This document shows positions 1,198 to 12,534 of a stretch of 64,000 nt of DNA, piece by piece (the first letter of the stretch is position 1; each line of letters opens with the position of its first letter). Where the stretch lies: assembly GCA_028716045.1 (NCBI GenBank), contig JAQUQO010000001.1, positions 256,942 through 320,941 on the forward strand. The letters run 5' to 3'. This DNA comes from Patescibacteria group bacterium. GTDB lineage: Bacteria > Patescibacteriota > Patescibacteriia > JAQUQO01. The notes below the pieces were generated by a model. The model worked only from the letters and a program-made list of their open reading frames with translations, was not told the origin of the DNA and did no database searches. The position numbers and the translations under genes were made by a program.

Positions 1198-1230
1198 CAA
1201 ACGACTCTAAAGTAAGGGTCGTTTTTTGTT
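1198..1230 (+). terminator. intrinsic terminator after the small ORF
   Basis: Stem AAACGAC...GTCGTTT followed by TTTTTTGTTTT. Confidence 0.45.
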
Positions 1231-1374: not shown

Positions 1375-1426
1375 ACACAATATCTTGTGGTATAATAATT
1401 AAACTCACTCCTACATATAGTGTATG
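1375..1426 (+). promoter_or_regulatory. nrdJ promoter region: extended -10 (TGgTATAAT at 1388-1396) flanked by two NrdR-box-like palindromes
   Basis: ACACAATATCTTGTGG (1375-1390) and CTACATATAGTGTATG (1411-1426) sit about 32 bp apart, centre to centre. Both resemble the acaCwAtATaTwGtgt NrdR box. Assignment is by eye only. Confidence 0.3.
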
Positions 1427-3217
1427 CCAAATATCAATGTCACCAATCGTGACACCCTAAAATTTAACTTGGGCGGAGAAGAAAGGGTTTTGGAATTCAC
1501 CCCGAGCGCCTGGACGGTTTTGGAGAAGCGTTATTTAAGGAAAGACGAAAACGGCAATGTGATTGAGACCCCGCTGGATATGTTCAGGCGGGTGGCCAAT
1601 AATATCGCCATGGCGGATAAGTTTTACGGCGCCACGGACGAAGAAGTGGCCAAAACCGAAGAGGAATTTTTCAAAATGATGGTTAATTTAGAGTTTTTAT
1701 CAGGCATGGCCTTGAGAAATGCGGGGCGAAAACTCCAACAATTGTCGGCTTGTTATGTTTTGCCCATAGAGGACTCCATGGAATCCATTTATACCACCCT
1801 GAAAAACGCCGCTTTTTTGCATAAAACCGGCGCGGGCATCGGTTATGACTTTTCCAAACTTCGCCCGCGCGATGATGTGGTCAAAAGCACCGGCGGGCGT
1901 TCCTGCGGACCAGTCGGGTTTATGAAACTTTTTGAATATTCCTGCGCTACCATTGTTTATAACGCCGCCACCCGCCGGCCGGGCAATATGGGTATTTTGA
2001 GAGTGGACCATCCGGATATTGAAGAGTTTATCACTACCAAAAGGGATAACTCCGAGCTTCCTAATTTTAATCTTTCCGTGGCCGTGACCGATAAATTCAT
2101 GGAGGCCGTCAAAAATAACGACACCTATGATTTAATAGCTCCTCATAACGGTAAAGTCGTCAAAACCCTGAAAGCCCGGCAGGTTTTTGACCAGCTGGTG
2201 GACAGCGCCTGGGCTTCGGCCGAGCCGGGGATAGTTTTCATTGATGAAATCAATCGCCATAACCCCACGCCTCACGTAGCAAGAATTGACGCGACCAATC
2301 AATGCGGCGAACAGCCCCTGCTTGCTTATGAGGCCTGTAATTTGGGGTCTATTATATTATCCAGATTCGTCACTAGCGGTAAAGATGGCAAGAAAGAAGT
2401 GGATTGGGAGCGTTTGGCCGGCGTTGTCCGGGCGGCGGTCCATTTTTTGGATAATACTATTGATGTTAATAATTATCCTTTGCCGCAGATTACGGAAATG
2501 GTTAAAAACAACCGCAAAATCGGGCTGGGAGTAATGGGTTTTGCGGACCTCTTGATTGAACTCGGTATTTCCTACAATTCCGAGGAGGCCCTGCAGGTTT
2601 CCGAAAAGGTGATGCGTTTTATCAATGAAGTCGGGCATCAGGCGTCGGCCGATTTAGCCAAGGGCCGGGGTTCTTTCCCTAATTTTAAGGGAAGTATTTG
2701 GGAAAAAGAGGGCTATAAAATGATGCGCAACGCCACGGTGACGACTATCGCGCCCAACGGCACCACCAGTATTTTCGCCAATTGTTCGTCGGGCATTGAG
2801 CCGTTATTTTCTTTGGTGTATATCAGAAAAAATATTTTAGATAAGGACCAGGAATTTTTGGAGATTAATCCGGTTTTTGAAAAAGTTGCCAAAGACAATT
2901 GGTTTTATTCCAAAGAGCTGATGGAGGAAATAGCCGTCAAGGGGAGTATCCAGGATATCGAGGGCATTCCCGAGGAAATTAAAAAAGTTTTCGTCACCGC
3001 GCACGATATTCCTCCTGAACAGCATATCCGCGTTCAGGCGACTTTTCAGAAATATACGGATAACGCGGTTTCTAAGACGGTGAACTTGCCCAATAAAGCC
3101 GAGCGGCAGGAAGTGGAGAACATTTTTAGATTGGCTTATGAGCTTGGCTGTAAAGGTGCGACTATTTATCGCGACGGCAGCCGTGAAGCGCAAGTTTTGA
3201 ATTTGAAAAAGGCCTAA
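1424..3217 (+). CDS. nrdJ: class II (adenosylcobalamin-dependent) ribonucleotide reductase, catalytic-core-only copy (597 aa)
   Basis: LSACYVLPIEDS (radical-site Cys), TNQCGEQPLLAYEAC (thiyl Cys, Glu, and Cys at +11), SIAPNGTTS and YRDGSR motifs are present. It lacks the C-terminal redox tail that only the downstream gene carries. Confidence 0.85.
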   Translation: MPNINVTNRDTLKFNLGGEERVLEFTPSAWTVLEKRYLRKDENGNVIETPLDMFRRVANNIAMADKFYGATDEEVAKTEEEFFKMMVNLEFLSGMALRNAGRKLQQLSACYVLPIEDSMESIYTTLKNAAFLHKTGAGIGYDFSKLRPRDDVVKSTGGRSCGPVGFMKLFEYSCATIVYNAATRRPGNMGILRVDHPDIEEFITTKRDNSELPNFNLSVAVTDKFMEAVKNNDTYDLIAPHNGKVVKTLKARQVFDQLVDSAWASAEPGIVFIDEINRHNPTPHVARIDATNQCGEQPLLAYEACNLGSIILSRFVTSGKDGKKEVDWERLAGVVRAAVHFLDNTIDVNNYPLPQITEMVKNNRKIGLGVMGFADLLIELGISYNSEEALQVSEKVMRFINEVGHQASADLAKGRGSFPNFKGSIWEKEGYKMMRNATVTTIAPNGTTSIFANCSSGIEPLFSLVYIRKNILDKDQEFLEINPVFEKVAKDNWFYSKELMEEIAVKGSIQDIEGIPEEIKKVFVTAHDIPPEQHIRVQATFQKYTDNAVSKTVNLPNKAERQEVENIFRLAYELGCKGATIYRDGSREAQVLNLKKA

Positions 3218-3242
3218 ATTATAATTTTATTTATATATTTTT

Positions 3243-6200
3243 ATGACCAAAGAAGAGCTGCTTTCAAAAAAGCCCGAATTTTCTCCGAGTGCTTTGGAAG
3301 TGATAAAAAAACGCTATTTAAGGCAGGATGAAAATGGCGAGCCGATAGAAACTCCGGAAGAAATGTTTTATCGGGTGGCTGCTTTTATCGCCAGCGCCGA
3401 TAAAAATTACGCCGGAGAAAATTCCGAGAGGTCAATTGAGCAGTTTTACGAGATTTTGGTCAATTTAGAATTCCTTCCGGGAGGCAGGGTTCTTTTTGAA
3501 GCCGGAAATAATCATACCGGGCAAATGTCTTCTTGTTTCGTGATTCCGGTGGAAGACAGCATGGAAGCTATTTTTGACAGTTTGAAAGCGGCCGCTTTAG
3601 TCCAGCAGAATAACGGCGGAACGGGTTTTAATTTTTCCCGCATCCGACCCAAGGGGGATACGGTCAAAGGCGTGCCGGGCATTGCCGCCGGTCCGGTTCA
3701 TTATTTACGCACTTATGATACGGCTTTAAGCCGCGTGCTTCAGGGCAGCAAGAGGCACGGAGCCAATATGGGCATTCTGAATGTCACTCATCCGGACATT
3801 GAAGAATTTATTGAGCTTAAAGACAATGGCTCTACTATTAAAAATTTCAATATCTCCGTGGGCGTCACCAATGGTTTTATGGAGCGGGTGCGCAACGACG
3901 AAGAATATGAACTGATTAATCCGCGGACCGGCAAAACGGTGAAAAATTTGCGGGCGCGGGATATTTTCAACAAAATAACCAAGCGGGCTTGGGAATGCGC
4001 CGACCCCGGGATTATTTTTTTGGATAGAATGGAAGAAGGGAATAACAATCCGCATCTCGGAAAAATTGAAGCGACCAATCCCTGCGGTGAACAGCCGCTC
4101 CTGCCTTACGAATCCTGTAATCTCGGTTCGGTGGTGCTTCCCAATCATTCTGCCAACGGGGACGTTGACTGGATAAAAATGGAACGCACTATCAGGCGGG
4201 CGGTTCATTTTATGGACAATATGATTGATTTGAATAAATTTCCGCTTCCGGTCATCAGGGAAAATGTTTCCAAAACCAGAAAAATCGGTTTGGGAGCCAT
4301 GGGTTTTGCCCAGTTGCTTTTTAAGCTCGGCATTCCTTATAACTCCGAAGAATCCGTGGCGCTGATTGAAAAGATAATGAAGTTTATTTATGAAATCGCC
4401 AAAGACGAATCCATCAAAATGGCGGAAACGCGCGGAGTTTTTCCGGCTTGGCGGGGCAGCAAATGGGAAAAGATGGGAATTAAAATCCGCAACAGCCATT
4501 TAACCAGCATCGCTCCCAACGGAACAATCAGTTTGGTGGCCAGCACTTCCTCGGGGATTGAGCCGGTATTTTCTTTGGCCACCGTGCGTCGCATGTTTTA
4601 TGAAGACAATAGTGACGGCGGCGGGCGGGTAGTGAATATTATTGACCCGGTTTTTGAGCGCGTCGCCAAAGAACGGGGATTTTACTCTGATAAATTATTG
4701 GAAAAAATTGCCGAAGAAGGAACGCTTAAAGACATTCCGGAAATCCCCGCGGATGTCAAGAAAATTTTTACCACGGCCCACGATGTTACCTTTGACTGGC
4801 ATATTAAAATTCAGGCGGCGGCGCAAAAATATACCGACGCGGCTGTTTCCAAAACCATTAATTTCCCGCGTTATGCCAGCGTTGACGATGTTCGCCGCGC
4901 CTACATTTTAGCTTATGAACTTGGCTGTAAGGGCGTGACTATTTATCGCGATGGCAGTAAAGAGTTTCAGGTTTTAAATCTAAAAGAAAAAGCGGAGGTT
5001 GAAGAAGCTAAGCCAGAGCCGGTGCCGACCAATGATGACTGCATAGAGCTTGAGCCGGTCAGCAAAAAAGCCGTGGAAGAAATTCATGTGCCTACTAAAA
5101 TCCCCCTGACTCCCAACGCCCTGACTGTTTTAGAAAAAAGAGCTTTGATAAAAAATAAGGACGGGCAGGTGATTGAAACCCCCGAAGAACTTTTTCGGCG
5201 GGTGTCCAAGTGGGTGGCGAGCGCGGAAAAGACTTATGGCGCCACGCCGGAAGAAATTTTTAATTTGGAAGAAAAGTTTTACGAAATTCAGTCGCAATTA
5301 CGGTTTTTGTCCGGTCAAGCCCTGCGTAACAGCGGCCACGGACGCTATACGCTTTCCGCCTGTTTTGTTTTGCCGATTTACGATTCCATAGAAAGTATTA
5401 CTGATGCTATCAAGGAAAATGTCATTATTCATAAATCCACCGGCGGGACGGGTTTTAATTATTCGCGTTTACGAGCCAAAGGTTCGCAAGTGGGAGAGGC
5501 GGGACCGGTGGCCGCCGGTCCGGTCACTTTTATGAAAGCGGTTAATCTCACGCAGGGGACCATTCAGACCAAAGGCGGGCGTCAGCAGGGGAGCATGGCT
5601 ATTTTAAATGTTAATCATCCGGATATTGAGGAATTTATAAAAGTTAAAGACGAGCAGGGGGAGCTGGAACATATGAATATCTCCGTAGGGATTACCAAGG
5701 AGTTTATGGAGGCGGTTAAGGAAGACAAGGATTTTAATCTTACCAATCCGGCTGACGGCCGGACGGTTAAAACGGTGAGAGCTAAGAAAATTTTTGACAG
5801 TATCGTGGAGCACGCCTGGAGGAGTGGCGACCCGGGTTTGATTCTGCTTGACAGAATAGAAGAGGATAATCCCACGCCTACATTGGGGAAACTTGATACT
5901 ACTAATCCTTGCGGAGAGCAACCGCTTCTGCCGTATGAAACCTGTAATTTGGGTTCAATTATTTTATCCAATCATATTACCGACGAGGGACTGATTGATT
6001 GGGAAAAACTGCGCGAAACCGTGCGCTATGCCGTTCATTTTCTGGACAACACTATTGATATTAATGTTTTCCCTTTGAAAAAAATAGAAGAAGCCACCCG
6101 GGCCAATAGAAAAATCGGCTTGGGAGTGATGGGCTTTGCCGATATGCTTATAAAATTGGGGATTCCTTATAATTCCGATGAAGCGGTAGCCAAAGCGGAA

Positions 6201-7613
6201 GAAATAATGTCTTTTATCAATAAAGAAGCGCATGGTTATTCCGAAGAATTGGGGAGTAAGAAGGGTTCTTTCCCGAATTTTGATATTAGTTCCTGGAAAA
6301 ACAAAAAGGGATATCTGGCGATGCGCAACGCCACGGTCACGACTATCGCTCCGACCGGTTATACGAGTATTGTGGCCAGTTGTTCCTCGGGCATTGAGCC
6401 GGTTTTTGCCTTAGCTTTCAAACGGCAGAATTCCATGGGCGGAGTGGACCAATTTGAAGTTCATTCGCTTTTTGAAGAGGTTGCCAAAAAACGGGGGTTC
6501 TACTCGGAAAGCTTGATGGAGAGAATTATGGAAGAAGGCGGTGTAAAGAATTTGAAAGAGGTCCCGGAAGACATTAAAAAAGTTTTTGTTTGCGCTCACG
6601 ATATTTCTCCGGAATGGGATTTGCGCATTCAGGCGGCTTTTCAAAAATATACGGATAACGCGGTTTCTAAAACCATTAATTTTCCGGCCAACGCCGCTAC
6701 CGAGGATATCGCGCGGGTTTATCTTTTGGCGTATGAAAAGGGCTGCAAGGGAATTACGATTTACCGCGATGGCAGTCGCAGTCAGGTTTTGACGACCGGC
6801 AAAAAAGGCGAGCCAAAAGAAGAAAGGGGAATCAGTATTTCCAATGTCAGCGTGCCGGGGTTTTCTCCGGCTCCGCGTCCGCGACCCGAATGTGTGCAGG
6901 GATTTACTTATAAAATCAAGACCGGTTATGGGACTTTGTTTGTAACCGTTAATAACGATGAAGAAGGCAAACCATTTGAAGTATTTGCCAACATCGGCAA
7001 AACCGGCGGATTTTTTTCCGCCAAATCAGAATCCATTTGCCGGTTAATTTCTTTGGCCTTGCGTTCGCAGATTGACGTTAAAATAGTAATTGAACAATTA
7101 AAGGGTATCCGCGGACCGATGCCTAGTTGGTCTAACGGCAAAATGATTCTTTCCATCCCCGACGCCATCTCGCAAGTTTTAGAAGAACATGTTTCCAAAT
7201 CCCAGCAAAAACTTGATTTGAAGTTTAGCCAGGAGAGTAAAGAAAAAACCCCAATGGCGGATTACAGCGTGGAGGACAAAATTGAAGAAGTGAAAGAATC
7301 AATAAGAGAGAACATTAAAACAACGGAAGAGAAAAAGGAGATGGCCAGCGAGTCGCCGTCTGAACCGTTAAATCAGGCAACTTTGGTTAAGGAAACAAAG
7401 GAAACCGTGATAATAGAATCCGAACCGATAACTCCCGTCACTCTTCATGGTTCTGGCCATGGAATTGTGGCGCAGACGGAAGTGAAAACCAAAACTCGCG
7501 TGGCTATCGCCGATTTTGGCGTGGCTCCGCAATGTCCGGATTGCGGCAATATCTTGGAGCTGGGGGAAGGATGTATGATGTGCCGCGTCTGCGGTTATTC
7601 CAAATGCGGATAA
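3243..7613 (+). CDS. nrdJ: class II ribonucleotide reductase with two tandem catalytic domains plus a C-terminal domain and Cys-rich tail (1456 aa)
   Basis: Domain A (aa 1-585: SSCFVIPVEDS, TNPCGEQPLLPYESC) is followed by an acidic/Pro linker. Domain B (aa 600-1175: LSACFVLPIYDS, TNPCGEQPLLPYETC) comes next. The C-terminal GYGTLFVTVNNDEEGKPFEVF domain ends in CPDCG...CMMCRVCG. It starts 25 nt after the previous nrdJ in a different frame. Confidence 0.85.
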   Translation: MTKEELLSKKPEFSPSALEVIKKRYLRQDENGEPIETPEEMFYRVAAFIASADKNYAGENSERSIEQFYEILVNLEFLPGGRVLFEAGNNHTGQMSSCFVIPVEDSMEAIFDSLKAAALVQQNNGGTGFNFSRIRPKGDTVKGVPGIAAGPVHYLRTYDTALSRVLQGSKRHGANMGILNVTHPDIEEFIELKDNGSTIKNFNISVGVTNGFMERVRNDEEYELINPRTGKTVKNLRARDIFNKITKRAWECADPGIIFLDRMEEGNNNPHLGKIEATNPCGEQPLLPYESCNLGSVVLPNHSANGDVDWIKMERTIRRAVHFMDNMIDLNKFPLPVIRENVSKTRKIGLGAMGFAQLLFKLGIPYNSEESVALIEKIMKFIYEIAKDESIKMAETRGVFPAWRGSKWEKMGIKIRNSHLTSIAPNGTISLVASTSSGIEPVFSLATVRRMFYEDNSDGGGRVVNIIDPVFERVAKERGFYSDKLLEKIAEEGTLKDIPEIPADVKKIFTTAHDVTFDWHIKIQAAAQKYTDAAVSKTINFPRYASVDDVRRAYILAYELGCKGVTIYRDGSKEFQVLNLKEKAEVEEAKPEPVPTNDDCIELEPVSKKAVEEIHVPTKIPLTPNALTVLEKRALIKNKDGQVIETPEELFRRVSKWVASAEKTYGATPEEIFNLEEKFYEIQSQLRFLSGQALRNSGHGRYTLSACFVLPIYDSIESITDAIKENVIIHKSTGGTGFNYSRLRAKGSQVGEAGPVAAGPVTFMKAVNLTQGTIQTKGGRQQGSMAILNVNHPDIEEFIKVKDEQGELEHMNISVGITKEFMEAVKEDKDFNLTNPADGRTVKTVRAKKIFDSIVEHAWRSGDPGLILLDRIEEDNPTPTLGKLDTTNPCGEQPLLPYETCNLGSIILSNHITDEGLIDWEKLRETVRYAVHFLDNTIDINVFPLKKIEEATRANRKIGLGVMGFADMLIKLGIPYNSDEAVAKAEEIMSFINKEAHGYSEELGSKKGSFPNFDISSWKNKKGYLAMRNATVTTIAPTGYTSIVASCSSGIEPVFALAFKRQNSMGGVDQFEVHSLFEEVAKKRGFYSESLMERIMEEGGVKNLKEVPEDIKKVFVCAHDISPEWDLRIQAAFQKYTDNAVSKTINFPANAATEDIARVYLLAYEKGCKGITIYRDGSRSQVLTTGKKGEPKEERGISISNVSVPGFSPAPRPRPECVQGFTYKIKTGYGTLFVTVNNDEEGKPFEVFANIGKTGGFFSAKSESICRLISLALRSQIDVKIVIEQLKGIRGPMPSWSNGKMILSIPDAISQVLEEHVSKSQQKLDLKFSQESKEKTPMADYSVEDKIEEVKESIRENIKTTEEKKEMASESPSEPLNQATLVKETKETVIIESEPITPVTLHGSGHGIVAQTEVKTKTRVAIADFGVAPQCPDCGNILELGEGCMMCRVCGYSKCG

Positions 7614-7620
7614 TTATAAG

Positions 7621-7644
7621 GGCGGGCGCGAGCCCGCCTCTTTT
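7621..7644 (+). terminator. GC hairpin with a short T-run between nrdJ and cobO (partial terminator or attenuator)
   Basis: GGCGGGC-GCGA-GCCCGCC then TCTTTT. The cobO ATG follows at 7650. Confidence 0.35.
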
Positions 7645-7649
7645 AAACT

Positions 7650-8186
7650 ATGGCAACAGGCAAAGGATACATTCAAGTTTATACCGGCAAGGGCAAGGGG
7701 AAGACCACAGCTTCTCTGGGCCTGCTTATTCGCGCTTTAGGCAGGGGCCGAAAGGTGGCAGTGGTCTATTTTGACAAGGGCGGGGAGAATTACGGTGAGC
7801 GCGAAATTTTGCGGAAATTGGGCGTGGAATATTTTGCTACCGGTCTGGACCGCGTTAATCCCCGGACGCGGGAATTTCGTTTTGGAGTTTTGCCGGAAGA
7901 CATTAAAGAAGCGGAACGCGGTTTGAAAATCGCCGAAGATTTATTTACTAAAAATTACAACCTGATAATTCTAGACGAGCTTGGTTTAGCGGCAAATTTA
8001 AAAATGCTGCCAGTCGCGGATATTATAAAATTGTTAGATAAAAAACCGGAGCATCTGGAACTGGTTATCACCGGCCGTGATTGCCCGCAAGAAATTTTAG
8101 ATAGCGCGGATTTGATTACCGAGATGAAATTAATTAAACATTATTTTTATCAGGGCGTGCCGGCGAGAGAGGGGATAGAATATTAA
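7650..8186 (+). CDS. cobO: cob(I)yrinic acid a,c-diamide / cob(I)alamin adenosyltransferase (CobA/CobO/BtuR family)
   Basis: The P-loop YTGKGKGKTTASLG and the C-terminal ILDELGLA...LELVITGRDCPQEILDSADLITEMKLIKHYF collinearly match CobA/BtuR. Confidence 0.85.
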   Translation: MATGKGYIQVYTGKGKGKTTASLGLLIRALGRGRKVAVVYFDKGGENYGEREILRKLGVEYFATGLDRVNPRTREFRFGVLPEDIKEAERGLKIAEDLFTKNYNLIILDELGLAANLKMLPVADIIKLLDKKPEHLELVITGRDCPQEILDSADLITEMKLIKHYFYQGVPAREGIEY

Positions 8187-8230
8187 ATAAATGTAAACCC
8201 CTCGTGGCGGGTTTTTTATTATTATATATT

Positions 8231-9441: not shown

Positions 9442-9471
9442 GCGAGAGTTTAAAAAAACTCTCGCTTTTTT
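9442..9471 (+). terminator. intrinsic terminator ending the promoter-2 transcript
   Basis: GCGAGAGT-TTAAAAAA-ACTCTCGC followed by TTTTTT. Confidence 0.5.
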
Positions 9472-10150
9472 AATTAAATTTTTCAAAATGAATGTCCTTG
9501 GTTTCTACGCCGTTTTCTTTGAGAATGGCCACACAATCATTGACCATATCGGGTTGGCCGCAGATGTAAAATTTTTTATTTTTATAATTTTTCAACTTTG
9601 CCAAATGTTCCGTCACTCGGCCCGTGGCTCCCGGCCAAGCGGAAGTCGGTCGGGTGAGGGTAGGGGTATAGGAAAAATTGGGATATTTTTTCTTTAATTC
9701 TTCAAGCTCATCCGTAAGAAAAATATCTTCTTCATAGCGTCGCCCTAAAAAAAGATGAATAGGTTTTTTACTCCCGTTTTGTAAGAGTTCTTTAATCATG
9801 CACCGCAGTGGAGAAAGTCCGGCGCCGGTGGCCGCGAAAATATATTCCGGCGCTTCTTCTAAAATAAAAGAACCGAAGGGTCCTTTAAATTCCAGCTCCT
9901 CACCCTCTTTAATGGCGGCGAAATATCCCGAGGCCTTGCCGTTGGGGATAAGTTGAATGCAGAGGCGGATTTGATTTTCTTCGGGCGTGGAAAATAAAGA
10001 GTAGGCGCGATAAATGTCATGTTGGGGAATTTTCACGAGAATATATTGGCCGGCCTGGAAATTTATTTTTTCTTGCGGTTGCAAATATAAAGAGAGAACT
10101 TGCGGCGCCAGTTTTTCTATTTTGGTAATTTTAGCTTTATAATCCGGCAT
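9470..10150 (-). CDS. ferredoxin-NADP reductase-like FAD/NAD(P)-binding oxidoreductase
   Basis: RAYSL and GxxS/T FAD-binding region; GPFGSF; AATGAGLSPL NAD(P)-binding motif; CGQPDM C-terminal motif. Confidence 0.7.
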   Translation of the reverse strand: MPDYKAKITKIEKLAPQVLSLYLQPQEKINFQAGQYILVKIPQHDIYRAYSLFSTPEENQIRLCIQLIPNGKASGYFAAIKEGEELEFKGPFGSFILEEAPEYIFAATGAGLSPLRCMIKELLQNGSKKPIHLFLGRRYEEDIFLTDELEELKKKYPNFSYTPTLTRPTSAWPGATGRVTEHLAKLKNYKNKKFYICGQPDMVNDCVAILKENGVETKDIHFEKFN

Positions 10151-10226: not shown

Positions 10227-10625
10227 ATGTTTACGATAAATAGACAATCTGATTATGGCCTGCGGTTAATGGTGGAATTGGCTAAAAATAAAGATAAAAA
10301 GCCGGTTTCTTTGCGGAAATTTGCGGAGAAATACGGTATTTCTTTTCTTTTTCTTCAGCGGCTCGCCGGAAAGCTCCGTCAGGCAAAATTAATCCGGTCA
10401 ATGCGCGGCTCCGGCGGCGGTTATATTTTAACAAAAAAACCGGCTCAAATAAAGCTCGGGGATATTTTTCGGGCGTTGGAGGGCAAGGTGGCGGTGATGC
10501 GCTGTCTGAAGGGCGGCAAGTCCTGCCCGGCAATTTCCGCTTGTTCAACCAAAAAAATTTTATTCCGTCTGAATTGCGATATTAACAAAGCTTTAAATAA
10601 AATAAAATTAAGCGATTTTAAATAA
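10227..10625 (+). CDS. iscR: Rrf2-family transcriptional regulator (IscR-like, 3-Cys Fe-S ligands)
   Basis: N-terminal SDYGLRLMVELA and RGSGGGYIL; a CxxxxxxCxxxxxC cluster-ligand pattern; located directly upstream of iscS-iscU. Confidence 0.8.
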   Translation: MFTINRQSDYGLRLMVELAKNKDKKPVSLRKFAEKYGISFLFLQRLAGKLRQAKLIRSMRGSGGGYILTKKPAQIKLGDIFRALEGKVAVMRCLKGGKSCPAISACSTKKILFRLNCDINKALNKIKLSDFK

Positions 10626-10626
10626 T

Positions 10627-11853
10627 ATGAAAACAAAAAAAGAGATTTATTTGGACCATGCGGCCACCACCTATCTTTTGCCGGAAGTGGAAAAGGCGAT
10701 GGCGCCGTATTGGCAAAAAAATTACGGCAATCCTTCCAGCTTGCATTCCAAGGGCAGGGGAGCACTCGTCGCTCTTGATGGAGCGCGCGAAAAAATTGCC
10801 AAAATTTTTAATTGCCGCGGCTCGGAAATAATTTTCACGGGTGGGGGGACGGAGAGCGATAATTTGGCAATTTTTGGCGTGGCGCGCGAGCATCAGAAAA
10901 AAGGCAAACATATTATCACCTCCAAAATAGAACATCATGCTGTTTTGCATAGCGTGGAAGCATTAAGAAAAGAGGGCTGGGAAATTACTTACATTGGAGT
11001 TGATAAAGATGGCTTGGTTAATCCCGAAGATGTTTATAGGGCGATTCGCCCGGAAACGGTTCTTGTTTCCATAATGTATGCCAACAATGAAATCGGAACC
11101 ATTGAGACGATTGCCGATATTGGTCGGGCAATTTTAAAATACCGTAAAGAGCATAATACGGTTTACCCGTATTTTCACACTGACGCCTGCCAAGCGGCTG
11201 GCGCTTTGGATTTGGATGTGGGAAAACTTCATGTTGATTTAATGACTATCAACGGCAGTAAGATTTATGGGCCCAAGGGCGTGGGAGTTTTGTATAAGAA
11301 AAAAATAGTTAAGATTAAGCCCTTGATTTACGGCGGAGCGCAGGAATTCGGATTGCGCGCCGGCACGGAAAATATCCCGGGGATTGTCGGAGTGGCTATC
11401 GCTTTGGAATTGGCGCAAAAAAATAAAGACAAGGAAAATGAGCGTCTGATAAAATTGCGCGATGAGTTGATTGCCGGAATTGAAAAATCTATTCCCAATG
11501 TCAAATTAAACGGCCATCGCGAGCAGCGCTTGCCCAATAACGCCAATATAACTATTTTAGGCATTGAAGGCGAGGCCTTGCTTTTATATCTTGATAATGA
11601 AGGAATTTATGTTTCCACTGGTTCGGCTTGCACTTCCACAAATTTGGACCCTTCGCACGTGATTGTGGCCTTGGGATTGCCATATGAATACGCCCATGGC
11701 AGTGTGCGTTTTACTTTGGGCAAGAGGACGACGGAGGAGGATATTGAAGATGTTTTGAGAATTTTGCCCGGGTTGGTGGAGAAAGTCCGCGCTATGTCGC
11801 CGATAAAAGCGTGTAGTTTAGTTAAGGGCAAGCTGGCGCAGATTAAAAAATAG
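10627..11853 (+). CDS. iscS: cysteine desulfurase (class V aminotransferase)
   Basis: DHAATTYLLPEV, the PLP lysine context SKIYGPKGVG, and active-site STGSAC. Confidence 0.9.
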   Translation: MKTKKEIYLDHAATTYLLPEVEKAMAPYWQKNYGNPSSLHSKGRGALVALDGAREKIAKIFNCRGSEIIFTGGGTESDNLAIFGVAREHQKKGKHIITSKIEHHAVLHSVEALRKEGWEITYIGVDKDGLVNPEDVYRAIRPETVLVSIMYANNEIGTIETIADIGRAILKYRKEHNTVYPYFHTDACQAAGALDLDVGKLHVDLMTINGSKIYGPKGVGVLYKKKIVKIKPLIYGGAQEFGLRAGTENIPGIVGVAIALELAQKNKDKENERLIKLRDELIAGIEKSIPNVKLNGHREQRLPNNANITILGIEGEALLLYLDNEGIYVSTGSACTSTNLDPSHVIVALGLPYEYAHGSVRFTLGKRTTEEDIEDVLRILPGLVEKVRAMSPIKACSLVKGKLAQIKK

Positions 11854-11865
11854 AAATTATAAATT

Positions 11866-12534
11866 ATGAAAAAATTATCAAAAAAATCATATAAATTACC
11901 AAAGTCCTGCGATGGAGTGGAGCGCACTGGCGAAGAATGGCTTTATTCGCCCAAAGTTAAGGACCACTTTTTTAATCCGCGCAATATCTTGAGGCCTGAA
12001 GAAGAAAAAAAATACAAGGCCGATGGCGTGGGCTATGTCGGCAGTCCGGCTTGCGGAGACGTGATGAAAGTTTTAATTCAAGTTGACCCCAAAAAAGACA
12101 CCATCACTGATTGCCGTTGGCAGACCTTTGGTTGCGGCAGCGCTATTGCTTCCACTTCCATGATGTCGCAAATAGTGAAGGGGATGAAATTGGATAAAGC
12201 CTTAAAACTTACGCCCAATGATATAATTGACGCTTTAGGCGGTTTGCCGGCGCGAAAAATTCACTGTTCGGTTTTGGGGGACAAAGCGTTGCGGCAGGCG
12301 ATTAACGATTATTTCCGTAAGAGCGGACAATTGGCGCGTGTGGAAGTCGGCAATTATCGGGTTTTGGACAAGGTTTTAAAAATCACTGACCGTGATATAG
12401 AAGAAGCGGTGCTGGAAGGGGCTGATACTTTGGAAAAAGTACAGGCCAAAACCAAAGTTGGCACTGGCGACCCAGGTTCTCTGCCGGAAGTGGAGAAACT
12501 CGTCAGTTTTTACGTGCAGAAGTATTACGGATAA
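11866..12534 (+). CDS. iscU: Fe-S cluster assembly scaffold, IscU/NifU N-terminal domain with a C-terminal extension
   Basis: GSPACGD, GCGSAIASTS and HCSVLGDKALRQA match the IscU signature. Confidence 0.8.
   Translation: MKKLSKKSYKLPKSCDGVERTGEEWLYSPKVKDHFFNPRNILRPEEEKKYKADGVGYVGSPACGDVMKVLIQVDPKKDTITDCRWQTFGCGSAIASTSMMSQIVKGMKLDKALKLTPNDIIDALGGLPARKIHCSVLGDKALRQAINDYFRKSGQLARVEVGNYRVLDKVLKITDRDIEEAVLEGADTLEKVQAKTKVGTGDPGSLPEVEKLVSFYVQKYYG

Follow-up and report, generated by a model that had tools for sequence, protein, structure and literature searches.

Ribonucleotide reductase (RNR) provides the sole de novo path to DNA precursors, and its allosterically switched single active site is a textbook case of regulation. 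In an ordinary RNR one active site reduces four substrates and is switched by deoxyribonucleoside triphosphate (dNTP) effectors via loop 2. A 64,000-nucleotide stretch of contig JAQUQO010000001.1 from a Patescibacteria group bacterium (assembly GCA_028716045.1; the whole stretch is called the window here) raises the question of what such a bacterium does with three reductase cores in tandem. Two plus-strand open reading frames (ORFs) in the window, ORF1 at 1424-3217 (597 aa) and ORF2 at 3243-7613 (1456 aa), match the Pfam pair Ribonuc_red_lgN and Ribonuc_red_lgC (PF00317 + PF02867) once and twice, respectively. We refer to ORF1 as nrdJ-A, encoding core A, and to ORF2 as the nrdJ-BC fusion, whose halves are cores B and C. 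The reading we favour, and consider fairly probable, is that nrdJ-A, nrdJ-BC and the adjoining cobO form one operon for a lineage-specific, probably NrdR-repressed, adenosylcobalamin (AdoCbl)-dependent class II RNR with three diverged catalytic cores.

Three complete NrdJ cores in two genes

A sequence-only reading of this DNA had described three full-length NrdJ cores that keep the radical-site residues; its ORFs proved exact, its quoted motifs were found and the family matches agree with it. The NCBIfam model TIGR02504 (NrdJ_Z, cut-off 400) scored ORF1 at 681 bits and ORF2 at 1311 bits. NF006417 (cut-off 961) gave 1822 bits for ORF2 and 893 bits for ORF1, which falls below the cut-off because its C-terminal part is absent. 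By family assignment both ORFs would thus encode class II (AdoCbl-dependent), dimeric-type NrdJ. The best solved relative is the dimeric NrdJ of Thermotoga maritima (E = 4e-113, HMMER sequence alignment). AlphaFold2 modelled ORF2 residues 1-1200 with a mean predicted local distance difference test score (pLDDT) of 89, core B lying mostly above 90, and Foldseek matched the ORF2 model to T. maritima NrdJ structures with a target-normalised TM-score (TMt) of 0.82-0.84 at 38% identity. The monomer-type insertion that mimics a dimer partner (PF21995) reached 17 bits in Pfam, below its cut-off of 27, and no qualifying stretch was found.

Core A occupies the whole of nrdJ-A, core B is ORF2 residues 1-575 (3243-4967, plus strand) and core C is residues 618-1190 (5094-6812, plus strand). 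The translations contain LSACYV, MSSCFV and LSACFV, the finger loops TNQCGEQPLLAYEAC, TNPCGEQPLLPYESC and TNPCGEQPLLPYETC, the segment GYGTLFVTVNNDEEGKPFEVF and the terminal CPDCG...CMMCRVCG. The finger loop of core A, TNQCGEQPLLAYEAC, with its Asn, thiyl Cys, Glu and second Cys, lies at 2294-2338 on the plus strand. The catalytic residues are C110, N292, C294, E296 and C305 in A; C98, N279, C281, E283 and C292 in B; and C707, N888, C890, E892 and C901 in C. In the T. maritima NrdJ alignment that had been suggested earlier (HMMER, with a numbered column map), all three sets, and with them the quoted motifs, fall on T. maritima C134, N320, C322, E324 and C333. This Cys/Asn/Cys/Glu/Cys set is invariant in B and C (sets of 27 and of 95 fusions) and present in 9/9 A copies. 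An apparent loss of the first Cys in the Dojkabacteria A copies was rejected, since their motif reads AACYV and retains the Cys. An Asp (D105 in B, D714 in C) and an Arg (R135, R744) are likewise invariant in B and C; they align to T. maritima D141 and R171, which we take to be specificity-effector contact residues. The effector site is probably kept in B and C, judging from these alignments. Ordinary NrdJ has 212 columns with at least 90% conservation, of which 180 are retained in A, 171 in B and 155 in C. We conclude that all three cores are complete NrdJ folds with the full set of radical and redox residues.

One or two cores could be non-enzymatic all the same, acting as structural or allosteric partners, for instance as an inbuilt dimer partner providing the specificity site, in the manner of the insert in the Lactobacillus leichmannii ribonucleoside triphosphate reductase (RTPR). 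Catalytic subunits have often become fused to degenerate partners in evolution, all three cores depart from the canonical form in both loop 2 and the PNSPT loop (described below), and C retains the fewest of the conserved columns. However, sequences of each core that are only 45-60% identical still agree fully in the five catalytic residues, the finger loop and most barrel motifs, and divergence rates are equal in the three groups. A pure scaffold would furthermore be expected to have lost the thiyl Cys or the redox pair somewhere, and none did. We regard non-enzymatic cores as quite improbable.

The three-core layout is standard in a large uncultured group

Tandem cores may also arise through assembly duplication, or through a frameshift or nonsense error that splits one triple-core gene, although nothing but the tandem layout itself speaks for such an artefact here. 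In pairwise protein comparison the cores are 51.4% (A-B), 53.1% (A-C) and 50.9% (B-C) identical, and the DNA repeats between them are short stretches of 63-83% identity. The same 8 kb was found, identical, in the metagenome-assembled genome (MAG) GCA_028711565.1 (contig JAQTRY010000001.1) and in a separate Logan assembly of run SRR22315508. We compared nine loci, the window and eight diverse relatives (Parcubacteria-type, Kerfeldbacteria, Dojkabacteria/WS6), which come from different samples and lineages, and A is a separate gene in all nine, with another gene between it and the fusion in three. In a search with A against 1.84 billion representatives, two double-core representatives top the list and no triple-core single protein stands above them (best 150); the other multi-stretch matches are most likely intein-interrupted NrdJ. 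An assembly or sequencing artefact, to which we gave next to no credence, is refuted, and the sequence-only reading was right to exclude a simple frameshift between the first two genes.

When ORF2 was used as the query, at least 120 protein clusters (90% identity level), 1350-1670 aa in length, came back with the double core and a TSCPD domain, and 120/120 fusion clusters examined have two complete cores. Their source names are Patescibacteria, Parcubacteria, Kerfeldbacteria, 'Candidatus Ande...' and Dojkabacteria/WS6. A stand-alone NrdJ core gene (577-718 aa) lies upstream of the fusion in 8/8 inspected relative loci and hence in 9/9 with the window, the gap being 10-30 nt in six of the nine. 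A search of related genomes for the same architecture had been proposed earlier, and the architecture is there. The claim that it is unusual fared less evenly: the layout is unlike any characterised NrdJ, but with at least 120 clusters it is the standard layout of a large uncultured group and no rarity of one genome. It is not universal in Patescibacteria, as one MAG (locus L013) has an ordinary single NrdJ with canonical motifs. A profile scan of genome contigs with the fusion alignment, whose conserved peptides also match ordinary NrdJ, returned 80 loci, namely single-core genes of other phyla and the canonical NrdJ of L013; these served as an outgroup and are no gauge of taxonomic spread in GTDB. 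A scan of metagenome contigs with core A gave nearly all ordinary single-core NrdJ (84 cores typed 'O') and no added A copies.

Adjacent NrdJ gene pairs were observed in metagenome contigs of other lineages (L153/L155 5833-10678, L097 3568-8310, L128 1050-7887), so that tandem NrdJ paralogs are not confined to Patescibacteria. Some of these are intein-interrupted and some lack a Cys-rich tail, and each has canonical loop motifs in at least one member.

In the window, cores B and C are joined by a disordered linker rich in acidic residues, Lys and Pro (residues 576-617; 4968-5093, plus strand; pLDDT <50). The acidic, Pro-rich linker of the sequence-only reading is confirmed, at about 40 aa. In relatives without an insert the linker measures 15-76 aa, with a median of 30 over all 116. 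It extends to about 220 aa in eight Dojkabacteria fusions (P0064, P0107, P0114, P0115, P0119, P0120, P0116 and P0117; P0120 is locus L087 5001-9815). A Ham1/ITPase-family domain (PF01725) was detected in the three of these linkers that were scanned (32-53 bits, cut-off 22.5) and in 6/8 by precomputed Pfam, and a nucleotide-pool 'house-cleaning' enzyme therefore sits between two reductase cores. Other nucleotide-pool genes were seen near the operon in relatives: a NUDIX hydrolase gene between A and B-C (L003 5000-5878, L084 4219-4686), and dCTP deaminase/dUTPase-like genes and two NDK genes (L001 11964-13058, L087 1904-2446, L168 11103-11648, L085 13162-14122).

A, B and C are old paralogs

A neighbour-joining (NJ) tree was built from 169 cores over 555 columns, including 40 ordinary NrdJ. 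B formed one clade with 61/61 members (84% bootstrap), C held 60/61 and A 6/7, and A+B+C separated weakly from the 40 ordinary NrdJ (44% bootstrap). Both misplaced sequences are from locus L085. The placement of P0044_C with the A group and of L085_A at the base was rejected as a long-branch effect, since clade hidden Markov models (HMMs) type them as C-type and canonical-type; by the same models the L085 fusion is a normal B-C. Mean between-group distances were 0.93-0.98, and mean distances to ordinary NrdJ were 0.79 for A, 0.85 for B and 0.91 for C. Because the groups are farther from each other than from ordinary NrdJ, all three must have diverged fast from a canonical ancestor, A the least. 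Distances within groups were 0.59 (A), 0.58 (B) and 0.62 (C), and this equal divergence indicates that no copy is decaying.

We conclude that A, B and C are old paralogs forming three orthologous groups across distant Patescibacteria. The view that they are old paralogs kept under selection is thereby upheld by the clades and by their similar internal divergence. By identity the first and third copies are the closest, as had been proposed, but the margin is about 2%, and the tree gives it no statistical support (bootstrap 2% for A+C, 15% for B+C). Derived states common to all three, Asn to Gly in PNSPT and Gly at the position of T. maritima A210, support one origin of A, B and C.

Every core has an altered loop 2 and PNSPT loop

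The conserved columns that the cores have lost concentrate in the PNSPT loop and in loop 2. These alterations are the most unusual part of the locus and had been absent from the sequence-only reading. The conservation values given here are within-group, against a protein average of 0.70, and the ordinary set is the 40 NrdJ of the tree. The loop before the first Cys, which presumably corresponds to the phosphate-binding Thr209 loop of Escherichia coli R1 and is believed to touch substrate phosphates, reads PNSPT(L)MNAG in ordinary NrdJ (100% conserved), SGMALRNAG in A, PGGRVLFEAG in B and SGQALRNSG in C. Loop 2 reads KQGGTRRGAN in ordinary NrdJ (0.93), NAATRRPGN with a one-residue insertion in A (0.69), LQGSKRHGAN in B (0.84) and QTKGGRQQGS in C (0.80). 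In the window it is VYNAATRRPGNM in A (1955-1990, plus strand), LQGSKRHGANM in B (3735-3770) and QTKGGRQQGSM in C (5562-5597). Each core thus has its own version of loop 2, and in B and C this version is conserved above the protein average. The two canonical motifs, each 90-100% conserved in the 40 ordinary NrdJ, are carried by none of A, B or C; they are traits of the ordinary subgroup and not a formal family definition. Adjacent NrdJ pairs elsewhere carry the canonical PNSPT and KQGG..RRGANM in at least one member (L153) or in both (L097), and the motif changes are therefore specific to the three-core system.

In T. maritima NrdJ, K202 and Q203 of loop 2 project to the substrate, Q203 pointing at CDP or UDP in the dATP complexes and K202 at GDP in the dTTP complex (PMC3267527). 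Core B keeps the Gln at 203 (98%) and has no Lys at 202. In core C position 202 is mostly Arg, Lys or Gln, the last of these in this genome, and position 203 is not Gln. Core A has an equivalent of neither Lys202 nor Gln203.

These differences raise the idea of a division of labour, in which three sites with hard-wired or strongly biased substrate preferences would stand in place of one switched site. We offer it as a speculation with a small chance of being correct. B keeps the Gln that points at CDP and UDP; C is mostly basic at the GDP-pointing Lys position, with Gln in this genome; and A, with neither residue, would take the remaining purine. If this were true, the B-C fusion, the shared tail and NrdR control would set dNTP balance by stoichiometry and not by allostery alone.

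One cysteine tail among three cores

Only the third core is followed by a C-terminal domain and a Cys cluster, as the sequence-only reading had noted. ORF2 has a TSCPD domain at residues 1222-1316 (6906-7190, plus strand; Pfam 72.7 bits, cut-off 22.8), a low-complexity tether of about 114 aa (7191-7532, plus strand) and a six-cysteine zinc-finger tail that ends with the stop codon (7533-7613, plus strand; C1431, C1434, C1444, C1447, C1450 and C1455). The TSCPD domain has an IscU-like fold (PMC9669993). The arrangement that characterises the NrdJ cysteine-rich zinc-finger domain (CxxC, x9, CxxCxxC, x4-5, C after TSCPD) is present in ORF2 with spacing x2, x9, x2, x2, x4, compared with x2, x9, x2, x2, x5 in the NrdJd of Stackebrandtia nassauensis, and the six Cys are invariant in 27 fusions. 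The ORF1 sequence has no C-terminal Cys pair and no TSCPD: nrdJ-A ends with ...YRDGSREAQVLNLKKA, directly behind the final barrel strand. The 64 kb yielded no further TSCPD or Cys-tail gene.

Between TSCPD and the Cys cluster the fusions have a median of 92 aa, compared with 34 and 64 aa for two ordinary NrdJ sets, by a crude, motif-based measure, which makes the fusion tether about 1.5-2.7 times the ordinary length. In S. nassauensis NrdJd four tail Cys bind zinc and two form the redox pair; the tail is needed for turnover with tris(2-carboxyethyl)phosphine (TCEP), and a mixture of mutants showed reduction of another subunit's active site (PMC5704485). Every genome in which a tail-less NrdJd was detected also encodes one with a tail, and Pseudomonas aeruginosa encodes the Cys tail separately (PMC5704485). 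From these comparisons we suggest that one long-tethered Cys tail probably re-reduces all three cores in trans.

Regulation and cofactor supply

A palindrome resembling an NrdR box, ACACAATATCTTGTGG, lies at 1375-1390 and overlaps a promoter-like site at 1372-1399. It differs from ACACWATATWTWGTGT at two positions, and no other site in the 64 kb has two mismatches or fewer. Promoters of the NrdR regulon are marked by a pair of 16-bp NrdR boxes that lie about 31-32 bp from each other. A weaker candidate second box, CTCCTACATATAGTGT at 1408-1423, has four mismatches to the consensus and no statistical support; it follows the first by 33 bp and ends at the ATG, which leaves a Shine-Dalgarno sequence no space. 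Boxes of this kind are found upstream of nrdR-nrdJ in 7/9 loci, and 10 of the 15 NrdR-box matches in 179 kb fall within about 5.5 kb of upstream DNA. The nrdR gene itself is upstream in 6/8 relatives, and none was found anywhere in the 64-kb window.

The gene directly 3' of the fusion, cobO/btuR (7650-8186, plus strand), encodes an ATP:corrinoid adenosyltransferase (PF02572, 185 bits), and cobO is also downstream in two relatives (L001 and L085). Together with the family assignment this points to AdoCbl as the likely radical generator. No cobalamin riboswitch or other RNA family was found by Rfam in the whole window. A ferredoxin-NADP-reductase-like flavoprotein (FAD_binding_6 + NAD_binding_1) is encoded near the operon on the opposite strand, both in the window (9470-10150, minus) and in L168 (1350-2066, minus), the locus of a 58%-identical relative; the electrons for corrinoid reduction or for the Cys tail could come from it.

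One enzyme or two

In the arrangement we favour, all three cores would reduce ribonucleotides. The Cys tail would take electrons from a thioredoxin-like donor and then re-reduce the active-site disulfides of C, of B and of the tail-less A in trans within a hetero-oligomer. The different loop 2 sequences may couple effector to substrate differently at the three sites, and CobO would make AdoCbl from scavenged corrinoid. With a linker of 15-76 aa the two fused cores must sit close together, and the simplest view is that B-C is probably a covalently tethered heterodimer, B and C pairing via the usual four-helix interface, which forms the specificity site; A would pair with itself or dock onto B-C.

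A different account holds that the locus encodes two independent isoenzymes, with A homodimeric and served by its own reductant (a small thiol or thioredoxin directly), B-C a second enzyme, and the NrdR regulon the only link between them, without interaction. A is indeed the most canonical core by conserved columns and the nearest to ordinary NrdJ by distance, NUDIX or unknown genes lie between A and B-C in L003, L084 and L087, a promoter-like site is present at 3197-3225, and adjacent NrdJ paralog pairs also occur in ordinary bacteria (L097, L153). On the other hand, A lacks any C-terminal Cys pair, and tail-less NrdJd has been reported only alongside a tail-bearing copy (PMC5704485). A and B-C furthermore occur together in all nine loci, mostly with the short gaps described above, A has derived motif changes in common with B and C, and the B-C tether is unusually long. 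We consider two isoenzymes unlikely, though less so than non-enzymatic cores.

Several observations weigh against a single three-core enzyme. The genes inserted between A and B-C in three loci and the internal promoter-like site mean that the A:B-C ratio need not be fixed. AlphaFold2 models of B and C in one chain gave a predicted TM-score (pTM) of 0.58 here and, for a relative whose linker has 15 aa, 0.56; each core folds well, but these values give no confident inter-core placement, and B:C packing, and with it the covalent pseudo-dimer of the sequence-only reading, is therefore neither supported nor contradicted by them. Mutual information with average product correction (APC) between B and C columns had top pairs that reflect a split into two subclades and not contacts. 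The PNSPT loop is changed in all cores, and activity or the form of the substrate (NDP or NTP) could therefore differ. The A group rests on only 8 sequences, and in L085 the stand-alone copy (2814-4970) is of canonical type: it keeps PNSPTLMNAG, carries a TSCPD without a Cys cluster, and matches the ordinary-NrdJ HMM best. This copy may represent the ancestral state of core A or a replacement. With these points counted, the three-core operon remains the reading that we favour.

Other features of the locus

The upstream gene is closed off, and the nrdJ unit bounded on its 5' side, by a terminator-like hairpin at 1199-1224 (plus strand), whose 10-pair stem leads into a T-run; a terminator-like site lies 3' of cobO at 8195-8214. 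The spacer between nrdJ-A and nrdJ-BC (3218-3242, plus strand) is 25 nt long and AT-rich, with a stop codon before it and a different reading frame after it. Between the nrdJ-BC stop and cobO, at 7621-7638, there is a perfect GC-rich hairpin, GGCGGGCGCGAGCCCGCC, without a T-run on the plus strand, which may be an mRNA processing or stability element. Upstream, a 205-aa ORF at 199-816 has a predicted coiled-coil, Lys/Glu-rich region and a C-terminal zinc-ribbon, with all its Pfam matches below threshold. Just downstream, 10227-12534 encodes an Rrf2-family regulator, a class-V aminotransferase (cysteine desulfurase-like) and a NifU-like scaffold, an Fe-S assembly cluster.

Relation to known reductases

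T. maritima NrdJ is encoded by one gene and forms a homodimer (PDB 1XJE and 3O0N, among others). The window proteins resemble it in fold, in the Cys/Asn/Cys/Glu/Cys set, in the absence of the monomer-type insertion and in the Asp and Arg at D141 and R171. They differ in having three paralogous cores, two of them on one chain, with K202 and Q203 altered and the PNSPT loop remodelled. S. nassauensis NrdJd (Loderer et al. 2017, PMC5704485) shares the six-Cys motif with nearly the same spacing and the TSCPD/IscU-like domain before it, whereas its core-to-tail ratio is 1:1 per polypeptide, compared with 3:1 and a longer tether here. Genomes with two NrdJd, as in some Frankia and Alphaproteobacteria, combine a tail-less core with a tail-bearing one, as A with B-C; those are single-core paralogs, however, not reported as fused or motif-divergent, and the pair was not studied as a system (PMC5704485). 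In P. aeruginosa the split NrdJa and NrdJb place core and Cys tail on different polypeptides, and reduction there must therefore occur in trans, as A requires; unlike the tail polypeptide here, which is fused to core C and has two cores, NrdJb has no catalytic core. The monomeric RTPR of L. leichmannii likewise builds a dimer-type specificity interface into a single chain, but does so with a helical insertion (PF21995) and not with a second full catalytic core.

Our literature search found no paper on NrdJ in these phyla or on tandem or fused class II catalytic cores; the papers found describe tandem ATP-cones and split or tail-less NrdJ. Public annotation of the fusions is limited to the generic 'vitamin B12-dependent ribonucleotide reductase', with the architecture unremarked. 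We conclude that the system belongs to a known enzyme class but has an architecture that is new and conserved, along with specificity elements that are altered.

The locus is a natural experiment on RNR specificity, one that could show how loop 2 variants alter the coupling of effector to substrate. It could also show whether one cysteine-rich tail services several sites. In a large uncultured radiation with tiny genomes, keeping three 570-aa paralogs must pay for itself. The system, with its adjoining adenosyltransferase gene, furthermore points to B12 dependence as a metabolic constraint on these symbionts.

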